Positions 5,781 through 18,370 are shown, counted from the stretch's first letter. The stretch: DNA of 64,000 nucleotides from an uncultured Candidatus Rokubacteria bacterium (GCA_963708025.1 CAVPSB010000012.1:1-64000), one strand, 5' to 3'. Notes: a model not told the origin generated them from the letters alone. Program-made: numbers and translations.

Positions 5781-7271
5781 GTGGACACCCTGGTCGCGCT
5801 CGGCCACGGCTTCACGGTCGCCCTGGCGCCGATCAACCTCCTCTTCGCCCTCGTCGGCGCGGCCCTGGGGACGGCGGTCGGCGTGCTGCCCGGCATCGGC
5901 CCGGCCCTGACGGTGGCCCTCCTGCTGCCGGCGACCTATCAGCTGGCGCCGACCGGCAGCTTCATCATGTTCGCCGGCATCTACTACGGCGCGATGTACG
6001 GCGGCTCGACCACCTCGCATCCTGATCAACACGCCGGGCGAGTCGGCCTCGATCGTCACCGCGCTCGAGGGCTACCGCATGGCCCAGCGCGGGCGAGGCG
6101 CGGCGGCGCTGGCGACGGCGGCCATCGGCTCCTTCGTGGCCGGCACGCTGGCCACGCTCGGGCTGACCTTTCTGGCGCCGGCGCTGGTCGGGGTCGCGCT
6201 CAGCTTCGGCCCCGCCGAGTACTTCGCCCTGATGGTGCTGGCCTTCACCACCGTCTCCGCCGTGCTCGGCGCGTCGCGGCTGCGCGGCGCCATCAGCCTC
6301 TTCTTCGGCCTCGGCCTCGGGCTGATCGGCATCGACACCCAGACCGGCCAGGCGCGCTTCACCCTGGGGGTTCCGGCAGCTCCTCGACGGGATCGACGTG
6401 GTCCTCGTCGTGGTCGGCCTGTTCGCGGTGGGCGAGACGCTCTACGTGGCGAGCCGCTTCCGCGGCGCGTCCGGCGTCATCGCGATCCACGGCTCGCCCT
6501 GGATGACGCGGCGAGGAGTGGCGGCGCTCGTGGAAGCCGTGGCTGCGCGGCACCCTGCTCGGCTTCCCGATCGGGGCGCTGCCGGCCGGCGGCGCCGAGA
6601 TCCCGACCTTCCTCTCCTACCTGGTCGAGAAGCGGCTCTGCAGCGAAGCCGGAGGAGTTCGGCAAGGGCGCCATCGAGGGGGTGGCCGGTCCGGAGGCGG
6701 CGAACAACGCGGCCGCCGCCGGCGTGCTGGCCCCGCTCCTGACCCTCGGGCTGCCCGACCTCGGCCACCGCGGCCATCCTGCTGGCCGCCTTCCAGGGGT
6801 ACGGGCTCCAGCCGGGGCCGCTCCTCTTCCAGAACAACCCCGACCTCGTCTGGGGGCTGATCGCGAGCCTGTACATCGGCAACGTGATGCTGCTGGTCCT
6901 GAACCTGCCGCTGGCGCCGCATCTGGGTGCGCCTCCTCATGATCCCCCGGCCGCTCCTCTACGGCGGCATCGTGGTCTTCGCGCTCCTCGGCGCCTACGC
7001 CGCCAACAACTCGACGGCCGACGTCGCGATCCTCCTCGTCATCGGGGTCGTCGGCTACCTCATGCGCGTGTACGACTTCCCGGTGGCGCCGGTGCTGGTC
7101 GGGATGATCCTCGGCCCGCTCTCCGAGCAGCAGCTCCGGCGCGCGCTGGCCATCAGCCAGGGCAACCCGGCGGTGTTCCTGACCCGGCCGATCGCCGCCA
7201 CGCTCCTCGCCATCGCGGCCCTGCTGCTGGTGGGGCCGCTCCTCTACCAGCTCGCCACCCGGAGGCGCTGA
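5781..7271 (+). CDS. tctA: Tripartite tricarboxylate transporter large membrane subunit, several frameshifts
   Basis: [33 protein letters not shown] and [13 protein letters not shown] are spread over successive frames. Confidence 0.9.
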
Positions 7272-8267
7272 TGCGCATCGCGCTCCTGGGCGCCGGCCGG
7301 ATCGGCGCCCTCCACGCCCGGCTCCTGAAGGCCGACCCCCGCGTCTCGGAGCTGCTCGTCGCCGACGTCGACCCGCCCCGGGCGGCGGCCGTCGCCTCTG
7401 CCGTCGGCGCCCGCGCCGTGGAGACGATCGACGCGGCGCTGGACCGGGCCGAGGCGGTGGTCATCACGGCCGCCACCGACGCCCACGCCGCCCTCATCCG
7501 GGCCGGCGCCGACCGCCGGCTGCCGGTCTTCTGCGAGAAGCCGATCGCCCTGGAGCTGGACGAGACCCGCCGGGTGGTGCAGCACGTCGAGGCCGCCGGC
7601 ATCCCGCTCCAGATCGGCTTCCAGCGCCGCTTCGACCCCGCGTACCGCGAGGCCCGGCGGCTCATCGCGACCGGCGCCCTCGGCACCGTCTACACGATCC
7701 GCCTGGCCGGCCACGACCCGGCCCCGCCCCACGAGGCCTACATCCCGGTCTCGGGCGGGCTCTTCCGCGACTTCTCCATCCACGACTTCGACGTGATCCG
7801 CTGGCTCACCGGCACCGAGGTCGAGGAGGTCTACGCCGACGGGGGCGTCCGTCGGCTTCCCGGTCTTCGCGAAGTACGGGGACGTGGACACCGCGGTGGC
7901 GACGCTCCGGCTCGGCGACGGGACGCTGGCCGTCCTGACGGTCGCCCGCCACGATCCGCTCGGCTACGACATCCGGACCGAGATCTTCGGCTCCAAGGAC
8001 AGCGTGAGCGTCGGGCTCGGGCCGCGGACGCCGATGCGCTCCCTGGAGCCCGGCGTCCCGCCGCCGGCGGGGCCGGCCTGGCAGAACTTCCTCGTCCGGT
8101 TCGAGGACGCCTACCGCGCCGAACTGGGCGAGTTCCTCCGCGTGGCCCGCGGCGAGGCGCCGAGCCCGTGCACGGGGAAGGACGGCCTGGCCGCCCTGGA
8201 GATCGCGGTCGCCGCGACCCGGGCGCTGCGGGAACACCGGCCGGTCCGCGTCGCCGAGGTGCGCTGA
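7271..8267 (+). CDS. Gfo/Idh/MocA oxidoreductase (myo-inositol 2-dehydrogenase-like), frameshift near 7850
   Basis: [32 protein letters not shown] and [11 protein letters not shown]. Confidence 0.88.
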
Positions 8268-8436
8268 TCGCGGGACCGACCGGCCGGCTGGAAACGGTCC
8301 TACCGCAATAGACGCTTGACTCCTCGCCGCACCGGCGACAGAGTCGAGTCGGACGGGCTCGTTCGGCGCGTGAGCTGGTCGCACCGCTCGCCGCAGCGCG
8401 ATCGGCCCCGCCCATGTATCAGCGAGGACCCGAGTG

Positions 8437-10056
8437 ATGTCGTCACCCCAGCCGTTCCCCACCCGGCAGTACGCCTACACGCGGCGAGCCGGCGCCGACG
8501 AGGCGCTCGACGTCCCGCTCCCCGTCCTCGAGGCGGGAGCGACCTATCGCTTCATCATGGGTCGTGACCCCGTTCCCCGGAAGCTCTCGGCCGAGGAAGT
8601 CGGCACCACGCTGCACGACCCGTTCGCTCGGCTCGTGCTCGGTCGCGACCGGTCGCCGCGGACCGCCACCGCGCTCCTGGGAGTGCTCGCCGAGGCCGAT
8701 GGCGAGACCGGCGGCCTGCCGCGACAGCGCGTCTTCCTGGTGGCGGACGGCGGACAGATCCCCTGGCGTGCCGACACTGCCGGGGTGGAGCGCGCGTTCC
8801 GGTTCCTCGTGGCGCGAGGACGGCCCGACCGGGAACCCGCGCTGCTGGTCAGCACGACCGCGCCCTTCGACTCCGAGTCGGCCTTCCTGCAGGTCATCGG
8901 CTGGGATCCGGTGAGCGAGGCCTACCAGTTCTACGACCGGCGGCAGGGCGCCTGGATCTGGGCGGGCAGCTCCTGGGACGCGCTCGCCGCCGACAGCCGT
9001 GGCCAGGGACCGTTCGACAGCCACGTCAACGGCGCCCTCAACATGAAGGAGCTGAAGGCGCCGTGGCTCCACTGGCACAGCCAGGCGGCCGGCATCCGCG
9101 AGGAGGCGCTGGCCGGAAGCGACCCGCTGCGGACGGACCCACTCTGGCAGGCCCGCGAGGGGGCCGAGCGCCTCGAGACCGAGGTCGTCCGCCCGGGCAT
9201 CCAGCGGTGGAACGAGGCACGCTTCCGCGCCTGCCGGCGAGACGGCCGTCTCACCAGGCTGCCCGAGTTCCTGCGCCAGGTGCTCGGCACGTCGACGGTC
9301 AACCTGGTGTCCTCCCCGGTGGAGAGCCGCAAGATCACCCCGGGCCAGCGGGTGCCGCTGCCGCTGACCTTCTTCGTGAACAGCGACGCCCTGGTGGACG
9401 ATCTGGGTCTGGACCCGGGCCTGGCGGCGCCCCTCGCGGTGGATGGCGCGGCCTACCTGCACTGCCTGCGGACGTACGAGGTGGCCATCGCCGACCGGGC
9501 GCACCGGTTCTCCGGCGACACCCATTTCGCCTTCGTCGTCCCCGAGCCGGCCTTCGAGGACCTTCTGGTCCTGCGGGCGCTGCGGACCCTCGGCGTCCTG
9601 CCCGACAAGCTGGCCGCCAGCCTGCTCATGGTCGACTTCAGCAACCCGGTCTTCTCCCGGCGCCGGGCGGAGCTCCTCCGCCACGTGCCCGACTCCGCGA
9701 CGGAGGGCCCCGCGAGCGACTTCCCGGACCGGTTCGTGACCGCCGTCGAGACGGCGGCGGCCGGCCTTCCGCCGGGAAGCCCGCAGCACGAGCTCCTGGC
9801 CAACTGGCGACTGCCGGAGACGGCCTGGCGACCGGAGTTCGAGCGCCGCCTCGCCGCGTTCTTCGCGGCTCTCGCCCCCCGGCTCGCCAGTGCCGAGAGC
9901 TTCGCGCCTCTCTTCGAGCTGGCGGAGTCCCGGCGGCGCGAGTTTCGCCGGCAGCGCCTGGCCGAGTTCCGGCTGACGACCCCGACGACGAACATTCCCG
10001 AGGAGGCGCCCCTTCTCGAGCTCCTCCCGGACTCGGGCATCCGCCCCAAGAGCTGA
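8437..10056 (+). CDS. Hypothetical protein (~539 aa)
   Basis: Long ORF with coding-like codon bias and a GAGGA SD; aromatic-rich core QVIGWD...YQFYDR...WIWAGSSWDAL...GPFDSHVNGALNMKELKAPWLHWHS; no function recognised. Confidence 0.85.
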   Translation: MSSPQPFPTRQYAYTRRAGADEALDVPLPVLEAGATYRFIMGRDPVPRKLSAEEVGTTLHDPFARLVLGRDRSPRTATALLGVLAEADGETGGLPRQRVFLVADGGQIPWRADTAGVERAFRFLVARGRPDREPALLVSTTAPFDSESAFLQVIGWDPVSEAYQFYDRRQGAWIWAGSSWDALAADSRGQGPFDSHVNGALNMKELKAPWLHWHSQAAGIREEALAGSDPLRTDPLWQAREGAERLETEVVRPGIQRWNEARFRACRRDGRLTRLPEFLRQVLGTSTVNLVSSPVESRKITPGQRVPLPLTFFVNSDALVDDLGLDPGLAAPLAVDGAAYLHCLRTYEVAIADRAHRFSGDTHFAFVVPEPAFEDLLVLRALRTLGVLPDKLAASLLMVDFSNPVFSRRRAELLRHVPDSATEGPASDFPDRFVTAVETAAAGLPPGSPQHELLANWRLPETAWRPEFERRLAAFFAALAPRLASAESFAPLFELAESRRREFRRQRLAEFRLTTPTTNIPEEAPLLELLPDSGIRPKS

Positions 10057-10068
10057 AACGGAGGCGAC

Positions 10069-11190
10069 ATGGCGCTGGAGAGATTCGACCCCCCCGGGTT
10101 CGTGGATGACCTGCAGGAGACGCAGAAGAAGGCCTGGAGCGACTGGATCGCCGCAGCCAGCTCGGACGAGGCGCGCGCCCGCGGGACCGGCGGGCCGGCC
10201 GCCTACGGACCACGCTTGCAGTTCTTCAACCCGCTCGACACGGCGCCCGCCACCGACGCGGTGGAAAAGGACATCACGTGGTCGGCGTTCCCCCGGGTCG
10301 TCAAGATCACCTCGGTCAGCGACGTCCAGCGCTGGCGCCGGGCGGATGGGAGCCGCGACCGGCAGGACGAGTACTGCGAGTGGAGCGTCTTCCGGGATGC
10401 GGGAACCCAGAAGATCGTGAAGGTGACGTTCACCAGCGAGGGCCCGGAGTACTGGGAGTTCCTGGCCGCCGTGAGCCCGGACCGGCTGGTCGAGCTCTAC
10501 CGGCAGCACGTGGATCCGTCGGTCAAGCGGCAGGACCTCTTCCGGGCCGATGGCGCCTACGAGGCGCGGAACCGCTGGAACAACTCCACGGACGGCGGGG
10601 CCATGCACCTCATCCAGGGCGCCAACACCCTGGGCGCCGAGATCGAGCTGGCGGCCGCGGCCACGATCGTGCGCCGGCGGAACGGCGTCCTCCTCACCTC
10701 GGAGCGCGAGCTCATCGACTGCGGGCGATACGGGGAGCCCGAGCGCTTCAGCGATCCCCACATCGGCGCCGAGGTGAACGCGCTCGCGCGGCAGAAGGCG
10801 GACCTCACCCTGGCCAACCCCGTCGGCCTGTGCATCGCCGGACTGAGCGTCGCGGGCTGGCAGACACCCGACGGCTCCGATCCCCTGGACTACTGGAAGG
10901 TGACGCGGGGGACGCCCGAGAAGGTGGTGCGCGCAGTCTACGAGGTGCCAGCCGGCCGCGGCTTCGCTGTCGGCGACATCACGATCGGGGGCCGCCGGAT
11001 CGAGTACGGGGCCCAGATCGCCGACTTCATCACCATCAAGCTGACCGGCCTCGCCACCCGCCTTGGCCAGAGCGCGGTCGGTCCCGTGGACGGCTGCGTC
11101 GGGGAGGCGGAGGGGGACGTGGGGGTGCTGGCGGCGGTGGTGCCCTCCGTGGAGTCCGTCCTGGCCCGCCGCCGGCAGGTGACGCGCTGA
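10069..11190 (+). CDS. Hypothetical protein (373 aa)
   Basis: GGAGG SD, 12 nt after the upstream stop; motif-like blocks QDEYCEW, FTSEGPEYW, HLIQGANTLGAEIELAA and FSDPHIG; no function recognised. Confidence 0.87.
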   Translation: MALERFDPPGFVDDLQETQKKAWSDWIAAASSDEARARGTGGPAAYGPRLQFFNPLDTAPATDAVEKDITWSAFPRVVKITSVSDVQRWRRADGSRDRQDEYCEWSVFRDAGTQKIVKVTFTSEGPEYWEFLAAVSPDRLVELYRQHVDPSVKRQDLFRADGAYEARNRWNNSTDGGAMHLIQGANTLGAEIELAAAATIVRRRNGVLLTSERELIDCGRYGEPERFSDPHIGAEVNALARQKADLTLANPVGLCIAGLSVAGWQTPDGSDPLDYWKVTRGTPEKVVRAVYEVPAGRGFAVGDITIGGRRIEYGAQIADFITIKLTGLATRLGQSAVGPVDGCVGEAEGDVGVLAAVVPSVESVLARRRQVTR

Positions 11191-11328
11191 GCCGCGGCAC
11201 GCTCCCGTCGGGCCGGCGCCGGCCGGCGCGTCCGGCGCCTCTCTCATCCACTTGACGCGGGCGCCGCGCCCTCGCCAGCGTGGGGCCACCGGGCACCCGC
11301 GGCGAGGCCACCGGCGGCTGCCGGGGGA

Positions 11329-12066
11329 ATGGCCATGGCGGACCAGGTGTTCGGTGCGGGAGAGTTCCGGACCACCAAGAATCCCCGCGTGGGCGTCCTC
11401 ACGCTCCGCTCGGGAGCCGGGCGGCAGTACCGGTACTCCGAGATCGACGGGATCGGCATCTTCGAGGGTGACATCGTGCTCGCCCGCGGCCTCGAGCTGC
11501 AGGGGATCGGGGTCGTGCGGCCCGGCGCACGATGGCCCGGCCGTACGATCGTCTACGATGTCAACGCCGCCCTGCCGGGCACCCAGCGCGTCACCGAAGC
11601 CATCGCCCACTGGGAAGCGACGACCGTGATCAGGTTCAAGAAGCGGAGCGCGGAGCAGGACTACGTGTTCTTCCGGGACGGCGGTGGCTGCAGCTCGGCC
11701 GTGGGCCGCATCGGGGGCGTGCAGTGGATCACCCTCGGCGCCCAGTGCTCGACGGGCAACGCGATCCACGAGATCGGCCACGCGGTGGGGCTCTGGCACG
11801 AGCAGAGCCGCGCGGACCGGGACGAGCACCTGACGATCATGTGGGACAACATCGAGCCGCTCTATCAGCACAATTTCGACCAGCACATCACCGACGGGGA
11901 CGACATCGGACCCTACGACTACGGCTCGATCATGCACTACCCGAAGGTCGCCTTCGCCATCGACCCGGCCAAGCCGACCCTCGTCACCCGGAACGGCGAG
12001 GAGATCGGCCAGCGCAATGGGCTCAGCCCGGGCGACATCGCAGCGGTGGCCGAGATCTATGCCTGA
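11329..12066 (+). CDS. Astacin-family (M12A) zinc metallopeptidase, no signal peptide
   Basis: HEIGHAVGLWHEQSRADRD, Met-turn SIMHY, propeptide FEGDI, GCSSAVG and IGQRNGLS. Confidence 0.93.
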   Translation: MAMADQVFGAGEFRTTKNPRVGVLTLRSGAGRQYRYSEIDGIGIFEGDIVLARGLELQGIGVVRPGARWPGRTIVYDVNAALPGTQRVTEAIAHWEATTVIRFKKRSAEQDYVFFRDGGGCSSAVGRIGGVQWITLGAQCSTGNAIHEIGHAVGLWHEQSRADRDEHLTIMWDNIEPLYQHNFDQHITDGDDIGPYDYGSIMHYPKVAFAIDPAKPTLVTRNGEEIGQRNGLSPGDIAAVAEIYA

Positions 12067-13258
12067 GCCGGCCCCGCCCCTCCTGTTCGACGCCCGGGCC
12101 GGTCTGGGCCGGGCCCCGGGGCTTCACGCGCTGATCGTCGGGGTCGGCTCCTACCCGAGCCTGCAGGGCGGGGCCGAGACGGTGGCGGAGCCGTGGGACA
12201 TGGGCCAGCTCTCCTCCACCGCCTCGTCCGCCCACAGGGTCTACGAGTGGCTCCGCAAGGCCGACGACGAGAAGCGCCTCCCGGTCCCGCTGGCCACCTG
12301 CCGCGTCCTGCTCTCGCCGATGCCGGCCGAGGCCCACCTGGCGGGGGTCGGCCTCCCGGCGACGCTCGCCAACTTCGGCCCCGCGGCCCACGCCTGGCGT
12401 GACGACTGCAAAGCCGACCGGGGCAGCGTGGCGTTCTTCTACTTCGCCGGGCACGGCGTCCAGCGCACGAAGGACGACGCCGTCTTCTGTCTCCAGGAGT
12501 TCCGGAAGCCCGGCTTCGGCACACTTTTCCACTCGGTCGCGCTCGCGAACCTTCGCGGCGGCATGTCACCGGCCCCGGGCTTCGAGGAGATGGCGCGCAC
12601 CCAGTTCTACTTCTTCGATGCCTGTCGCGTGCGCCCCGACCGGTTCGCGGAGTTCGAGCGGATGGGCACGAGCGACGTTTTCGAGGTGGCCCTGGCCGGG
12701 AAGGACGACCGGTGCTCGCCCATCTTCTTCGGGGCCATCTCCAACCAGGCCGCCCAGGCGCTGCCGGGACAGCAGACGCTCTTCAGTCGGGCCGTCCTCG
12801 AGTGTCTCGAGGGCGAAGCGGCGGAGGAGGTGGGCGAGACGCCCGCCGGCGAGGTGCAGTGGGCGGTGACGGTCAGCTCGCTGAGCGAGCAGCTCCAGAC
12901 CGTGAAGATCGACCAGCTCAACCGCGACTTCCAGGCCGACCAGACCTACGCGCCCGGTGGGGAGTTCCGGACGGGTACCATCTGCCGGCTCAACGCCGTG
13001 CCCGAGGTCCGACTGCGCCTGGAGGTGATCCCGCCGGAGGCGTGCCTGGTGGGCAAGCTGACGCTCGTCCGGCAGGGAGACGGCGTGGTGCTCGAAGCGA
13101 TGCCTCCGATCGACCCCCATCCCTACGAGCGGTCGCTGCCGGCCGGGATCTACCATCTCGAGCTCTCGTTCGACCCACCCCATCCCGTCTTCAAGAAGGC
13201 CAGCCGGGACTGGTACGTCCGACCCTTCCGGTTCGAGAAGAAAGTGAAGGTGGGCTGA
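12059..13258 (+). CDS. Caspase-family (C14, metacaspase-like) cysteine protease with a C-terminal beta-rich domain
   Basis: HALIVGV, FFYFAGHG (catalytic His) and FFDACR (catalytic Cys); ATG overlaps the 3' end of the astacin gene. Confidence 0.9.
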   Translation: MPEPAPPLLFDARAGLGRAPGLHALIVGVGSYPSLQGGAETVAEPWDMGQLSSTASSAHRVYEWLRKADDEKRLPVPLATCRVLLSPMPAEAHLAGVGLPATLANFGPAAHAWRDDCKADRGSVAFFYFAGHGVQRTKDDAVFCLQEFRKPGFGTLFHSVALANLRGGMSPAPGFEEMARTQFYFFDACRVRPDRFAEFERMGTSDVFEVALAGKDDRCSPIFFGAISNQAAQALPGQQTLFSRAVLECLEGEAAEEVGETPAGEVQWAVTVSSLSEQLQTVKIDQLNRDFQADQTYAPGGEFRTGTICRLNAVPEVRLRLEVIPPEACLVGKLTLVRQGDGVVLEAMPPIDPHPYERSLPAGIYHLELSFDPPHPVFKKASRDWYVRPFRFEKKVKVG

Positions 13259-14572
13259 TGCCGCGCCTGTCCTTCACGCTCGGCTTCCAGTTCGACCGAG
13301 ATGAACGCCCTCGACCTGCCGATCGAGGTCCGCAAGCCCAGCTCGGCTCTGGTGGCCCGGACGCGGTCGTCGCAGGCGGTCGACCTCCCGCCGGGCGTGT
13401 ACTACGTGACGACCCGGTTGCCGGCCGGCCAGCAGATCACGCGCTCGGTGGACCTCACCGGGGGGTCGCGCCAGCTCCGGCTCGAGCCCGACCCCGAGGA
13501 TGCCGGGGACCACGAGTGGGACGAGCAGCGGCACTTCCTCGACCCCGCGCGCCCGGCGGCGATGGCGCGCGGCCGGGCGGAGTGGGCCGCTCCGGAGGAG
13601 GCGGCGCCGGCGCCGGGCACGCTGGACGCCGCGCCGCCGCCGGCCGGTGCCGGCGCGGAGTCGGCCCTCGTCGAGGGCCGCGGCGCCCTGCGGGTCTTTT
13701 CGGGCAACCTCCTCCTGGGGCCGGGGACGCTCGAAGCGGCGACCGTCGTGCTGCGCCTGCAGCAATTCGAGGCCGGCCGCGTCGTGTACCTCGGGGTGCA
13801 GGCGTCGTCCCCGGTCGTGGTGCAGCTCCTCGAGGTGGGGTCCGCCGCCCTGAACCAGGTCGTGCCGCCGGGCGCCCGGCTTGCGGTCAGCCACCGCCCC
13901 ACCCCGGAGATCAAGGCCGGCAGCCTCTTCAAGCTGGAAGCCTTCACCCGGAACCCGATAGCCAACCTGCAGCTCCGCTACTGTCGCCAGGGAGCCTACC
14001 GGCGGGCGGGCTCCGCCGCCGAGTCGGAGCGCCTGCTGTACGAGAAGATCGACGATCCGGTAGCCGCCGCGATCGGGGCGTACAGCCTCTTCCGGATCGG
14101 CGCGCTGGAGCGCCTCCACGACTGGACGGCGAACCTGGACGCGATGTTCCCCTGGCTGCCGGACGGCGCCGCGATCCGTGGCGAGCATCTGGCCCGGCTC
14201 GGGCGGCACGTCGAGGCGCTTGCCGCCTTCGCCAGGCTCCCCGAGCGCGGGCTCCCGGTCGTGGCCGACGGGCTGTTCTACGCCGTCGAGCGGATGAAGC
14301 TCTACTCGCGCCTGTCTCCCGAGCGGTCGGAGGGCGTCGGCGTGGAGCAGGCCCGCGCGGTGCTCGCGAAGCTCGAGCGCTTCGCGGGTGTCGTGCACCA
14401 GCAGCGCCCCCTCACCAGCTTTCCGGGTGTCGATCCCGCCCGGCCCGACGCCCGCCTCCTGAGGGCGGGCGAGGCCTTCCCGGGCATGCTCCAGCTGGAC
14501 TGGCTGGTGGCCCCCTCGGCTCCGGGGCCAGGGACCGACCCGCCGCCGGCGGCGAGCGCCCGCTCCGCCTGA
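13258..14572 (+). CDS. Hypothetical caspase-adjacent protein (~437 aa; start probably ATG 13258 with a 1-nt indel before 13301)
   Basis: TGATG coupling to the caspase gene; N-terminal VDLPPGVYYV beta motif, acidic/Pro-Ala linker, helical C-terminus (LLYEKIDDPVAAAIGAY...WTANLDAMFPWLPDG). Confidence 0.82.
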
Positions 14573-14577
14573 GCCAC

Positions 14578-14931
14578 GTGGCCGAAGAGGTCGTCGAGGG
14601 ACGCATCGTATTCGGCGAGGACTCGGTGCCCTTCGAAGGCGCTTCCGTCGAGGTGACCATCGAGGACACGACCTACGCGGACGCGCCGGCCGTGCGGCTC
14701 GCCCGTCTCGTGCTCAGGGCGGTGACGCACGACGGGCGGGCGGGCGGGAGCATCCCGTTCTCGCTGCGCCGGGACGCTTCCGCCCCGCACCGGCGGCAGA
14801 GCCTCCGCGTCGTGGTGGACGTGGACGGCGACGGCCGGCTCGGCGTCGGCGACTACCGGAACGCCGAGAGCGTACCGGTGCCACCCGGGCCGGTGACGGG
14901 CCTGGTGGTCAGGATGCGACGCCTGAGCTGA
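14578..14931 (+). CDS. YbaY/YscW-like beta-sandwich protein without a lipoprotein signal
   Basis: GTG start 5 nt after the upstream stop; VEVTIEDTTYADAPAVRLA and IPFSL; DVDGDG loop. Confidence 0.72.
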   Translation: MAEEVVEGRIVFGEDSVPFEGASVEVTIEDTTYADAPAVRLARLVLRAVTHDGRAGGSIPFSLRRDASAPHRRQSLRVVVDVDGDGRLGVGDYRNAESVPVPPGPVTGLVVRMRRLS

Positions 14932-14961
14932 CCCGAGGCTGCCGGTGGCTCCCGCGGCCGC

Positions 14962-15843
14962 TCAGAAGGGGAGGATCGGCTCGGGGGCCGTCGGGAGGCA
15001 CCAGCCGACGGGCATGAAGGGCGTGGAGCCGGCGAAGCCGATCCGGCCCCGCCAGTCCATCAGGATGAGGCCGCCCACGCCCCGGCCGTCCTCGCGCAGG
15101 ATGTCGATCGCCACCTGGGCGGCCAGCTCCGGGTCGTCGAGGTCCTTCAGGATGTCCACCGCCGTCTTGGCCAGCGCCGTCCGGATGAACGCCTCGCCGT
15201 CCCCGGTCGTCGACACGCCGCCCAGCCGGTTGTCGGCGTAGGTGCCGGCGCCGATCTGCCCCGAGTCGCCGACGCGCCCCGGCCGCTTCCCGATCATGCC
15301 GCCCGTCGACGTCGCCGCGGCGATCGTCCCGCGCCGGTCGATGGCGACGGCGCCGACCGTGCCGCCCGCCGCCGGCGCCGGCTCGCGCCGGGCCAGCCGC
15401 TCCCGGAGCCGGTCGCGCTGGCGCTCGGTGACGAGGGCGGCGGGGTCGCAGAGGGCGACACCGTGCTCCCGCGCGAAGGCGACCGCGCCCTCGCCGACCA
15501 GCAGGACGTGGTGGCCATCCTCGAGGACGCGGCGGGCGAGCGTGACGGCGTTCGGTACCCCGGTGACCGCGCCGACGGCGCCGGCGGCCAGGCGCGCGCC
15601 CTCCATGATCGAGGCGTCGCACTCGACGGTGCCGGCCTCGGTCAGGACGGAGCCGTAGCCGGCGTTGAACCGGGGGTCGTCCTCCATCGCGGCCACGCAC
15701 GCCTCGACGCCGTCCAGCGCCGAGCCTCCGGTCACGAGCCGGCCCCAGCCAGCCCCCAGCGCCGCCCGCAGCGAGTCACGATAGCCGGCCCGGTGGTCGG
15801 GGTCGGCGCCGGCGCCCCCGTGAGCGATCAGGACGGGCAGCAT
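14962..15843 (-). CDS. iaaA: Isoaspartyl peptidase / L-asparaginase (Ntn hydrolase)
   Basis: AHGGAG, FNAGYGS, GTVGAVA autoproteolysis site, ATSTGG and GRVGDS. Confidence 0.92.
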   Translation of the reverse strand: MLPVLIAHGGAGADPDHRAGYRDSLRAALGAGWGRLVTGGSALDGVEACVAAMEDDPRFNAGYGSVLTEAGTVECDASIMEGARLAAGAVGAVTGVPNAVTLARRVLEDGHHVLLVGEGAVAFAREHGVALCDPAALVTERQRDRLRERLARREPAPAAGGTVGAVAIDRRGTIAAATSTGGMIGKRPGRVGDSGQIGAGTYADNRLGGVSTTGDGEAFIRTALAKTAVDILKDLDDPELAAQVAIDILREDGRGVGGLILMDWRGRIGFAGSTPFMPVGWCLPTAPEPILPF

Positions 15844-16657: not shown

Positions 16658-17369
16658 CCGGCGCCCGCGTCCGGCCGCCGCCCTGACGGCGATCCAGGCG
16701 CGGATCGTCGGCTGTCGCCGGTGCCCGCGCCTGGTGGCGTACCGGCGCGCGATCGGCGCCGACCCGCCCCGGCGGTTCCGCGGCGAGCGGTACTGGGCAC
16801 GGCCGGTGCCGAGCCTCGGCGCGGTCGGCGCCCGGCTCCTGCTCGTGGGGCTGGCGCCGGCCGCCCACGGCGGCAACCGGACCGGCCGGATGTTCACCGG
16901 GGACGCGGCCGGTGGCAGCGGGGCATGGGTGGCGCGGGCACTCCACGCCCACGGCTTCGCCACGCAGCCGACCTCCCGCCACCGCGGCGACGGCTTCCGC
17001 CTCATCGACGCCTACATCACCGCCCCCGTCCACTGCGCGCCGCCGGACAACCGGCCGCTGCCGGAAGAGTTCGAGCGATGCGCGCCCTACCTCCGCGCGG
17101 AGCTGGTCCTGCTCCAGCGCGTCCGGGTCGTCGTCGCCCTCGGCCGGATCGGCTTCGACGCGTACCTCCGCGCGCACGCGGCGCTCGGCTGGCCGCGGCT
17201 CCGGCCGGCGCCGCGGTTCGGGCACGGGGCCGTGGTGGAGCTGCCGGCCGGGATGACGCTGCTCGCGTCGTACCACCCGAGCCGGCAGAACACGCAGACC
17301 GGCAAGCTCACCTGGGACATGTTCGACGCAGTCTTTGCGGAGGCGCGCCGCCGGCTGCCAGCAGACTAG
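16638..17369 (+). CDS. udgB: Uracil-DNA glycosylase family 5
   Basis: CRRCPRL Fe-S motif, GLAPAAHGGNRTGRMFTGD and YHPSRQNTQTG. Confidence 0.92.
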
Positions 17370-17413
17370 GATCCATTTGCTTCGATCCGGGACGCGGCAG
17401 GGTTGTCTTTCCG

Positions 17414-17498
17414 GGGGCGGGGCCGAGGAGCGAGCAGCGCCCACAGGCCGAAGGCCGTCCGAAGGACGACGCGATGCGACGCTCCTCGGCCCCGCCCC
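17414..17498. repeat. 19-bp perfect inverted repeat enclosing the GGCCGAAGGCC cassette
   Basis: GGGGCGGGGCCGAGGAGCG ... CGCTCCTCGGCCCCGCCCC. Confidence 0.85.
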
Positions 17499-17550
17499 CT
17501 AGTGAAGCAAATGCTCGCGCGGCGCGGGTGCTTGCGGTAGGATGCCGCGT

Positions 17551-18370
17551 ATGGTGGGGGCCAGGGGAGGGCGCCTCACGGGTCCGCTCCTTGTGCGCCG
17601 CGTCGCTGGCGCTCGCGGCCGGGTGCGCCCTCCATCCGCCCCGCCCGCCGACCCGCGGCCAGGTCCTCGAGCGCATCCTCCCGGCCACCGTCCAGGTCTC
17701 GCTCGAGCAGGAGGGCCGCCGGTTCCGCAGCGGATCGGGCGTCCTGATCGCCAGCCGGCCGGCGGCCCACGGCAGCGACTGCTTCGTCCTCACCAGCGGG
17801 CACACCCTGGCCGGCTTCGCCGCGCCCCAGGAGGTCTACGTGCTGCTGGACCGCCATCAGGGCAAGGGGGCGAAGATTCGAGCCCGCCTGCTGGCCCGTC
17901 GCGACGCCGAAGGCGTCGACCTGGCGCTGCTGGCCGTCGAGGCCCGTCACTGCCCGGTGACCCGACTCGGCGAGCCGCCCGCGCTCGGCGACTCGATCTG
18001 GGTCGTCGCCTTCCCGTGGGGACGGAACATGACGCTCGTCGGCGGGATCGTGAGCCAGCTCAACGCCGATCCGCCCACCGGCCAGGAGGGTGAGTCACGC
18101 CTGATGATCGACGCCTCGGTGAGCTACGGCGCGAGCGGCGGGGGCGTCTTCGACGCGGAGAGCGGCCGGCTGGTGGGGCTGATCGAAGGCTACCGGACCG
18201 CCCGCGTCTCGTTCAAGGGCGACGGCGCCCAGCGCTACCTCGAGGTGCCGGTGCCGGGCGAGACCTACGTGACGCCGCTCGCGGCCGTCCGCCGCTTCCT
18301 CACCGAATCGGGCTTCGCGCATCTCCTCGGCACGCCGCCGACCAGCACCCTCGCCACACCCCGGCCGTAG
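17551..18370 (+). CDS. Trypsin-like (S1) serine protease, probable lipoprotein; 1-nt indel near 17597
   Basis: LAAGC lipobox, GSGVLI, LTSGH, DLALL and GASGGG. Confidence 0.85.

Follow-up and report, generated by a model that had tools for sequence, protein, structure and literature searches.

What is encoded by the six co-oriented genes at positions 8437 to 14931 of a 64,000-nucleotide stretch of DNA (hereafter the window) from an uncultured Candidatus Rokubacteria bacterium (GCA_963708025.1, CAVPSB010000012.1:1-64000)? The genes, here named A to F (Table 1), include an astacin metalloprotease (C) and a caspase (D), and the original prediction, made from the sequence alone, read them as a single undescribed system in which the two proteases act in cascade on uncharacterised neighbours. 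Open reading frame (ORF) analysis places all six genes on the + strand, as that prediction had it. Comparison across genomes resolves them into three independently conserved pairs, A-B, astacin-F and caspase-E, instead of one six-gene unit. We propose that genes C to F may encode proteases kept latent inside the cell, as part of a conflict-type or regulated cell-death system, beside a modular A-B core. The idea of an undescribed conflict-type proteolytic system is therefore supported in part, whereas the six-gene unit and the effector roles assigned to the neighbours are not.

Table 1. Genes and spacer of the cluster, with positions counted from the first nucleotide (nt) of the window and protein lengths in amino acids (aa).
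Feature	Positions	Strand	Size	Description
Gene A	8437-10056	+	539 aa	First half of the conserved A-B pair; starts at ATG, GTG at 8434
Gene B	10069-11190	+	373 aa	Partner of A; precomputed label PF26676; starts 12 nt past the A stop
Spacer	11191-11328		138 nt	Separates A-B from the four closely spaced genes of the protease module
Gene C	11329-12066	+	245 aa	Astacin (M12A), leaderless zymogen; PF01400
Gene D	12059-13258	+	399 aa	Caspase-family (C14) protease; PF00656; C-terminal beta-rich extension
Gene E	13258-14572	+	423 aa (ORF as given, 13301-14572)	Obligate caspase partner; precomputed label PF27295
Gene F	14578-14931	+	117 aa	Small beta protein, GTG start; predicted active-site inhibitor of astacin

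The layout and junctions first described for the cluster hold, but the reading frame of gene E does not. The sizes given for A and B, the 8-nt overlap between the astacin stop and the caspase ATG, and the 5-nt gap between E and F were all recovered, and a GAGGA motif lies 9-10 nt upstream of the gene A ATG. The TGATG overlap between D and E exists as well, but its ATG, at 13258, is not in the frame used by the body of E. As had been claimed, no signal peptide was seen in the six proteins by hydropathy (maximum KD19 1.44), and hydropathy likewise revealed no transmembrane (TM) stretch in any of them.

Genes A and B behave as one heterodimeric protein unit of unsolved fold, judging from their adjacency, their natural fusions and a confident model of the fused form. 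A profile of A, scanned against one genome per species, returned 65 loci, and B directly follows A in 63 of these. In some taxa the two are joined in natural fusions of 909-918 residues; for example, gene B is 67% identical to the C-terminal half of a fused 917-residue protein (P0092). The AlphaFold2 (AF2) model of a natural fusion, made with 53 aligned sequences, is confident, with a predicted local distance difference test (pLDDT) of 89.3 and a predicted template modelling score (pTM) of 0.74. Compared whole rather than by domain, this model gave no Foldseek match in the PDB at E<=1e-3 and a best Z of 3.6 in a VIA comparison with 48,161 chains; the A-B profile reached a best E of 0.41 against PDB sequences. 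At least 575 homologues of A were scored, at 50-75% identity and from many phyla. Gene A itself matches nothing in Pfam, NCBIfam or PADLOC, and its ESM Atlas family comprises only unnamed clusters without a Pfam 38.1 family; B has no ESM Atlas match above 0.78. The local Pfam copy holds no model for A, B or E, and PF26676 (B) and PF27295 (E) were assigned only as precomputed labels on database matches.

Residues conserved at 95% or more in A include D195-S196-H197, E371, E375, D376, D401 and R500-R502, and those conserved in B include C103, H180, C218 and C343. The D-S-H run, the acidic cluster and the R-R-R run of A, with the three cysteines and one histidine of B, suggest a catalytic or metal site and prove nothing. 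The hosts of A-B are mostly soil bacteria, among them predatory myxobacteria and actinomycetes. A search for paralogues in the genome of the window found E and the astacin in single copy and one partial second match to A. This partial A-like ORF (G000 contig 16, 375244-375627; locus L111 10245-10694, - strand) covers only A residues 3-155, at 40% identity, and has no B or protease genes within 10 kb. In four other loci (L060, L063, L066 and L067) several short ORFs stand in place of an intact A and/or B, which may mean that the copies are decaying or the assemblies poor.

What accompanies A-B differs from locus to locus. Among 109 longer relatives of B, about half are fused to PLDc_2, and some A-B-PLD proteins reach about 1400 residues; other fusions join B to a subtilase (S8), to trypsin, EEP and Endonuclease_NS in one protein, and to AAA_16/TPR of the STAND type in another. 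Neighbouring families were counted by Pfam scans and BLAST over the 65 loci. LodA and LodB each lie beside A-B in eight, a ferritin-like protein and an animal haem peroxidase (An_peroxidase) each in five, a galactose-oxidase-like protein in four and a GMC oxidoreductase in three. Proteases are represented by a caspase (eight loci), an astacin (six), trypsin or EAD1-trypsin (six) and a 1349-residue S8-S41 protease (five, the same loci that carry a PLD-bearing B), and lipase-S8 and a RoxA-like cytochrome c occur in two loci each. The EAD1-trypsin adjoining A-B was identified by Pfam in L062, and its BLAST cluster spans L013, L017 and L062. In L052, L055, L056 and L059 genes for LodA, LodB, haem peroxidase, radical SAM and ferritin-like proteins stand in large operons around A-B. 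Of 19 neighbour N-termini inspected by eye and by hydropathy, 18 have no signal peptide, the exception being the RoxA-like protein. The best explanation of these arrangements is that A-B is the constant part, and a leaderless hydrolase or oxidase, whether joined to B or supplied by an adjacent gene, the variable part, of a modular system. Proteins labelled PF26676 are also annotated in Glomeromycota (Funneliformis, Rhizophagus and Dentiscutata) and in the green alga Chromochloris (P0255-P0261 and P0272, 656-1114 residues); they are 37-52% identical to B of the window and could reflect either transfer between bacteria and eukaryotes or contamination.

The second pair consists of the astacin and gene F. 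Residues 68-244 of the astacin match PF01400 (E 3.7e-50, 170.7 bits against a cutoff of 22.5), and its extended zinc motif HEIGHAVGLWHEQSRADRD (HExxHxxGxxHExxRxDRD) and its Met-turn SIMHY (SxMHY) are invariant in the window and five relatives. The original prediction that the protein is a zymogen is borne out by a propeptide with the aspartate-switch motif FEGDIVL (FXGDI). According to a 2023 review (PMC9848320), this switch is common to animal astacins and absent from myroilysin. The switch Asp is present in five of the six aligned astacins; in that of the Methylocystis locus L048 (14398-15207) the motif reads CEGCIVLG, with Cys in place of the Asp, which suggests a cysteine-switch variant of the same propeptide. 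No N-terminal hydrophobic stretch was found in the window astacin (maximum KD10 1.10) or at the N-termini of the five relatives, by hydropathy only and with no dedicated predictor. Its closest NCBIfam model is the equivalog for LegP (NF045530), against which the astacin scores 258.2 bits, under the cutoff of 300.

Gene F had been called YbaY-like. Its match to PF09619 (YscW) falls below the cutoff (16.8 bits against 22.6, E 0.009), but a profile of F relatives matches PDB entry 5wec_A ('Lipoprotein') at E 8.8e-11, so that a related fold is likely. F has 379 relatives among cluster representatives. It shares a cluster with the astacin in seven of eight loci with this astacin type, the window included, being directly beside the astacin in five loci and after caspase-E in the window and L073. 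When the mature astacin domain was modelled with F and a riding zinc, three runs gave interface scores (ipSAE) of 0.95, 0.94 and 0.95, with partner pLDDT of at least 89 and contact agreement between runs of at least 96%; the best value among three controls was 0.00. This ipSAE mark is reached by 58 of 80 solved complexes and by 2 of 110 mismatched pairs, a calibration that is only rough here because the astacin-F runs used their own alignments and a riding zinc. The predicted interface sets F residues 29-38, the most conserved motif of the protein, with its nearly invariant D35, against astacin H147, E148, H151 and H157 and the edge strand 120-125. F is thus predicted to plug the active site of the mature astacin. 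Only a subfamily of F is linked to astacins: F-like proteins occur in 10 of 251 genomes of the window's phylum, and the other nine have no astacin within 1.5 kb of the F-like gene.

The third pair is formed by the caspase and gene E. Gene D matches PF00656 (26.9 bits against a cutoff of 21.4, E 4.6e-6), and the predicted intact catalytic pair is there: a His within FYFAGHG and a Cys within DACR, both aligned with those of relatives. The generic 'caspase' model of PADLOC also matches D (E 1.9e-12), over profile positions 2-130 of 453. Scanning metagenome contigs with a profile of E yielded 28 loci; a caspase lies directly upstream of E in 23, and in three of the other five E is at the start of its contig. 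The AF2 model of an intact E homologue (P0122; pLDDT 89.1, pTM 0.86) comprises an N-terminal Ig-like/CnaB-type sandwich (Z 7.5-8.5), a second beta domain and a C-terminal TPR-like region whose Z of 8-11 may be generic for helical repeats; the E profile matches designer PPR and solenoid repeats in the PDB. With its beta domains and TPR-like repeats, modelled E has the look of a scaffolding or adaptor protein and not of an enzyme or a pore. A 788-residue protein that follows a second caspase type (L016, L018, L040 and L061) was considered as a relative of E and rejected (hhalign probability 1%).

Other genes accompany the caspase-E pair elsewhere. In metagenome contigs L070, L074, L075 and L076 (e.g., L075 6393-8357) a 654-residue copper protein of the hemocyanin/tyrosinase type precedes it, and other pairs are followed by a metallo-beta-lactamase-fold protein (L091, L095 and L096) or a ferritin-like protein (L081). 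At L011, which carries tandem caspase paralogues beside a fused A-B, the first paralogue (6991-8139) has Gln for the catalytic His and Asn for the Cys and is probably a pseudo-protease.

How do the three pairs combine? The genes co-occur across genomes, the comparison on which the original prediction was to stand or fall: Methylocystis L048 has all six (order A-B-E-F-C-D), the metagenome contig L073 has C-D-E-F arranged as in the window, and other loci have subsets. For example, the astacin, F, caspases and a fused A-B occur together in L011, A-B adjoins caspase-E in L010 and L012, L044 has A-B and then the astacin, and in L016, L018 and L040 the astacin, F, the second caspase type and the 788-residue protein stand ahead of A-B. 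In all, 8 of 65 A-B loci, drawn from six phylum-level groups and with the gene order shuffled, have a close relative of C, D, E or F no more than 10 kb away. The association of A-B with the protease block is real but facultative, as shown by the absence of A-B from E loci and by C-D-E-F standing alone in L073. Nor are the neighbours of the two proteases obvious effectors or substrates, as first supposed: E is scaffold-like, F a predicted inhibitor, and A-B a constant module that is fused to effector-type enzymes in other genomes.

Our preferred reading, whose probability we put at roughly 45%, is that the proteases of the locus are latent and intracellular, belong to a system of the conflict or regulated cell-death type and lie beside a modular A-B core, rather than forming a nutritional exoprotease set. 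The A-B pair would be one unit and genes C to F the other, a four-gene intracellular protease module held by several latches. The first latch would be the astacin zymogen itself, in which, as its motif indicates, the propeptide Asp blocks the zinc. The second is predicted to be F, whose conserved YADAP loop would additionally plug the active site of the mature enzyme. Caspase D, with its intact His and Cys, may work with the scaffold E, which would sense or recruit. Once triggered, D would cut off the astacin propeptide, cleave F, or do both, and the freed astacin would then act inside the cell as a metalloprotease of broad specificity, in a putative caspase-to-astacin cascade. Finally, A-B could be an upstream switch or a second, parallel effector platform.

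Several observations weigh against this reading. A and B are absent from all 28 E loci, seven of which offer 13-21 kb of sequence, and L073 carries C-D-E-F without A-B although 5.3 kb upstream and 9.6 kb downstream are covered, so the association in the window could be island-like clustering. No caspase site is shared before the conserved GIG of the astacins: the preceding residues are Q, R, R, K, F and E in six relatives, and the sequence thus gives no support for one common cleavage specificity. The astacin-F calibration is rough, and in nine other genomes of the phylum the F-like gene has no astacin within 1.5 kb. At least one leaderless protease- or oxidase-type partner occurs in about 35 of the 65 A-B loci (the union of the families), a frequency counted without a random-locus baseline, which leaves the B fusions as the strongest evidence for the link between A-B and its partners; about 30 of the 65 have no recognised partner. 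At 50-68% identity across phyla, A-B resembles a housekeeping enzyme more than a component of an arms race. Gene E is frameshifted in the window as given, and no public RNA run containing the stretch is listed.

A bolder version of the proposal, which we regard as doubtful, would place A-B at the core of a very widespread, unrecognised modular system. As a heterodimeric switch with a new fold, A-B would keep leaderless degradative or reactive-oxygen enzymes in check and, on a trigger, unleash them; astacin, caspase, subtilases, PLD, nucleases, LodA and peroxidases would all come under it, the astacin-F-caspase-E block of the window would be one effector cassette, and F would be the founding member of a new metzincin inhibitor family. 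The opposite view, that A-B, astacin-F and caspase-E are independent two-gene systems that do not act on one another and are merely clustered, as defence genes are in islands, draws on the missing A-B of the 28 E loci and of L073, on the conservation of every pair on its own and on the 138-nt spacer that sets A-B apart. We consider it unlikely, because clustering in 8 of 65 A-B loci, in six phylum-level groups and in shuffled order, is hard to obtain by chance for rare families, and because B is physically fused to other proteases, to PLD and to nuclease domains.

The absence of signal peptides can also be read in another way. Partner families that are typically secreted, yet lack signal peptides here, a predicted astacin inhibitor, and hosts drawn largely from soil, predatory myxobacteria and actinomycetes among them, would all suit a toolkit of leaderless exoenzymes. 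The astacin, the caspase and, at other loci, LodA, peroxidase, subtilase and lipase would then be weapons or feeding enzymes released by lysis or by an unidentified, A-B-assisted export route, with F protecting the producer as staphostatin does against staphopain. A and B, however, have neither TM or signal features nor a fold like that of a known secretion component, and nuclease and PLD domains on a cytoplasmic B suit self-directed or contact-independent killing equally well, so that we judge such a toolkit improbable. Highly improbable, in our estimate, is that A-B serves maturation or cross-linking (for example of a resting-cell envelope or a natural product), as an enzyme of two subunits or as a structural protein, with the proteases and oxidases processing A-B or its product. 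The very high conservation of the pair, its conserved acidic, Cys and His residues and the LodA, LodB, haem peroxidase, radical SAM and ferritin-like operons of four loci speak for such a pathway, but fusions of B to PLD, endonuclease and EEP and a neighbouring EAD1-trypsin fit it poorly, and the loci have no carrier, transporter or precursor gene in common.

The proposed latent protease system corresponds to none catalogued in PADLOC-DB 2.0.0 (2023): the generic caspase hit on D is the only match and the other five proteins have none, in agreement with the original prediction, and we found no published description of this system. In the literature searched, no paper combines 'astacin' with 'anti-phage' or mentions PF26676 or PF27295; searches for LodA with caspase or astacin returned nothing relevant, and one on orthocaspases and TPR proteins showed no described caspase-E pair. 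The examined portion of the LodA genomics paper mentions no A-B-like pair. The nearest concept is that of the effector-associated conflict systems of multicellular bacteria, among which, according to Kaur, Burroughs, Iyer and Aravind (2020, PMC7159879), is the EACC1-caspase pair. As that paper describes them, EACC1 systems resemble the locus in combining a caspase with a constant non-enzymatic partner and in having effector enzymes that vary and are shared between systems; EAD1-trypsin beside some A-B loci and actinomycete and myxobacterial hosts are further likenesses. However, the locus lacks the EACC1 single-TM protein and has an astacin as the gene upstream of the caspase, and the caspase scores 19 bits against the EACC1-type model NF047832, whose cutoff is 140. 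Its partner E is soluble, is encoded downstream and consists of beta-sandwich and TPR-like parts. The accessible text of Kaur 2020 and Kaur 2021 contains no LodA or astacin system, and in the former 'astacin' occurs in the reference list only; the supplements of the 2020 paper could list such neighbourhoods.

Individual parts of the locus have likenesses of their own. Protease and inhibitor genes are paired elsewhere, as in serralysin-Inh and staphopain-staphostatin. As far as could be tested, F bears no sequence relation to such inhibitors, its inhibition is a prediction, and its sole solved relative, 5wec_A, was solved alone. An analogy may be drawn with fetuin-B and astacin, in that F is predicted to occupy the active-site cleft and to bring an Asp close to the zinc, echoing the aspartate switch described for astacin zymogens (PMC9848320). 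Like the bacterial astacins LegP of Legionella, myroilysin and flavastacin, the window protein has the M12A domain with full zinc and Met-turn motifs. LegP is moreover leaderless according to its NCBIfam description, as is the window astacin, which nonetheless falls under the equivalog cutoff (258 against 300 bits). Unlike myroilysin, which according to the 2023 review lacks the FXGDI switch, the window astacin possesses one and is encoded in an operon that contains a caspase.

Two immune architectures also invite comparison by analogy. The cyclic-oligonucleotide-based anti-phage signalling systems (CBASS) have a two-gene architecture of an enzyme plus a sensor-effector, and a constant A followed by a B with variable C-terminal effector domains (PLD, protease or nuclease) may be seen as similar. 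However, searches of A and B revealed none of the known signalling domains, whether nucleotidyltransferase, SAVED, CARF or another. Unlike the CBASS components, moreover, A and B are in places fused to each other and are both unusually conserved. Likewise, bacterial gasdermin-protease operons encode a caspase-like protease beside a possible target, as the caspase-E pair might. The model of E, though, best matches TPR and Ig-like/CnaB-type sandwiches with no gasdermin listed, and A and B match nothing.

The cluster lies amid transport and catabolic genes, as originally noted, its flanks encoding TctA, a GFO/IDH/MocA oxidoreductase and Asparaginase_2. Guanine-plus-cytosine (GC) content is about 72% in the window, which contains many spurious ORFs; at 0.69-0.75 over the cluster and 0.73-0.76 in the flanks it does not differ, and composition thus shows no trace of recent insertion. 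A consensus scan for promoters and terminators over 8200-15200 found nothing exceeding shuffled controls, and none in the spacer. Farther downstream, 1.8 kb from the cluster and past an asparaginase gene of opposite orientation, lies a gene for a 549-residue protein (16721-18370, +) with a C-terminal Trypsin_2 domain and a 337-residue N-terminal part without a family; at E 1e-6 it shows no match to the EAD1-trypsins found beside A-B elsewhere.

Several frames in this region are irregular. In the stretches 5781-6942 and 6884-8311, the TctA transporter is divided between two ORFs that overlap and are read in different frames, and the GFO/IDH/MocA ORF has a long N-terminal extension and a tail resembling out-of-frame high-GC sequence. 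Homologues of E open with a conserved MPRLSF.LGF, which the window encodes in frame 1 from 13258, with the remainder in frame 2, where the first in-frame start is 13301; an apparent 1-nt insertion therefore lies near 13290. In a near-identical contig from the public run X1 (343 nt, depth 5.2, 4 mismatches) a single letter is missing at 13291, and a gene E of 437 residues would thereby be restored. The length of about 437 residues first given for E is thus that of the gene after removal of the apparent extra base, whereas the ORF as given has only 423. Taken together, the split of TctA, the odd ends of the GFO/IDH/MocA ORF and the shift in E suggest an indel-prone assembly, which is as likely an explanation of the E shift as a true mutation.

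Finally, if the proposed reading is true, A-B would be an entry point to a large and unstudied protein family pair with at least 575 homologues, many effector fusions and an unsolved fold, and F would represent a testable new family of inhibitors of astacin metalloproteases. The caspase and E would form an obligate pair of protease and scaffold that also occurs near hemocyanin/tyrosinase-like genes, an arrangement that recalls the protease-activated phenoloxidase cascades of animals. Likewise, bacterial astacins may be cytoplasmic proteins with an animal-type aspartate switch, which would bear on the view that they are recent imports from animals.

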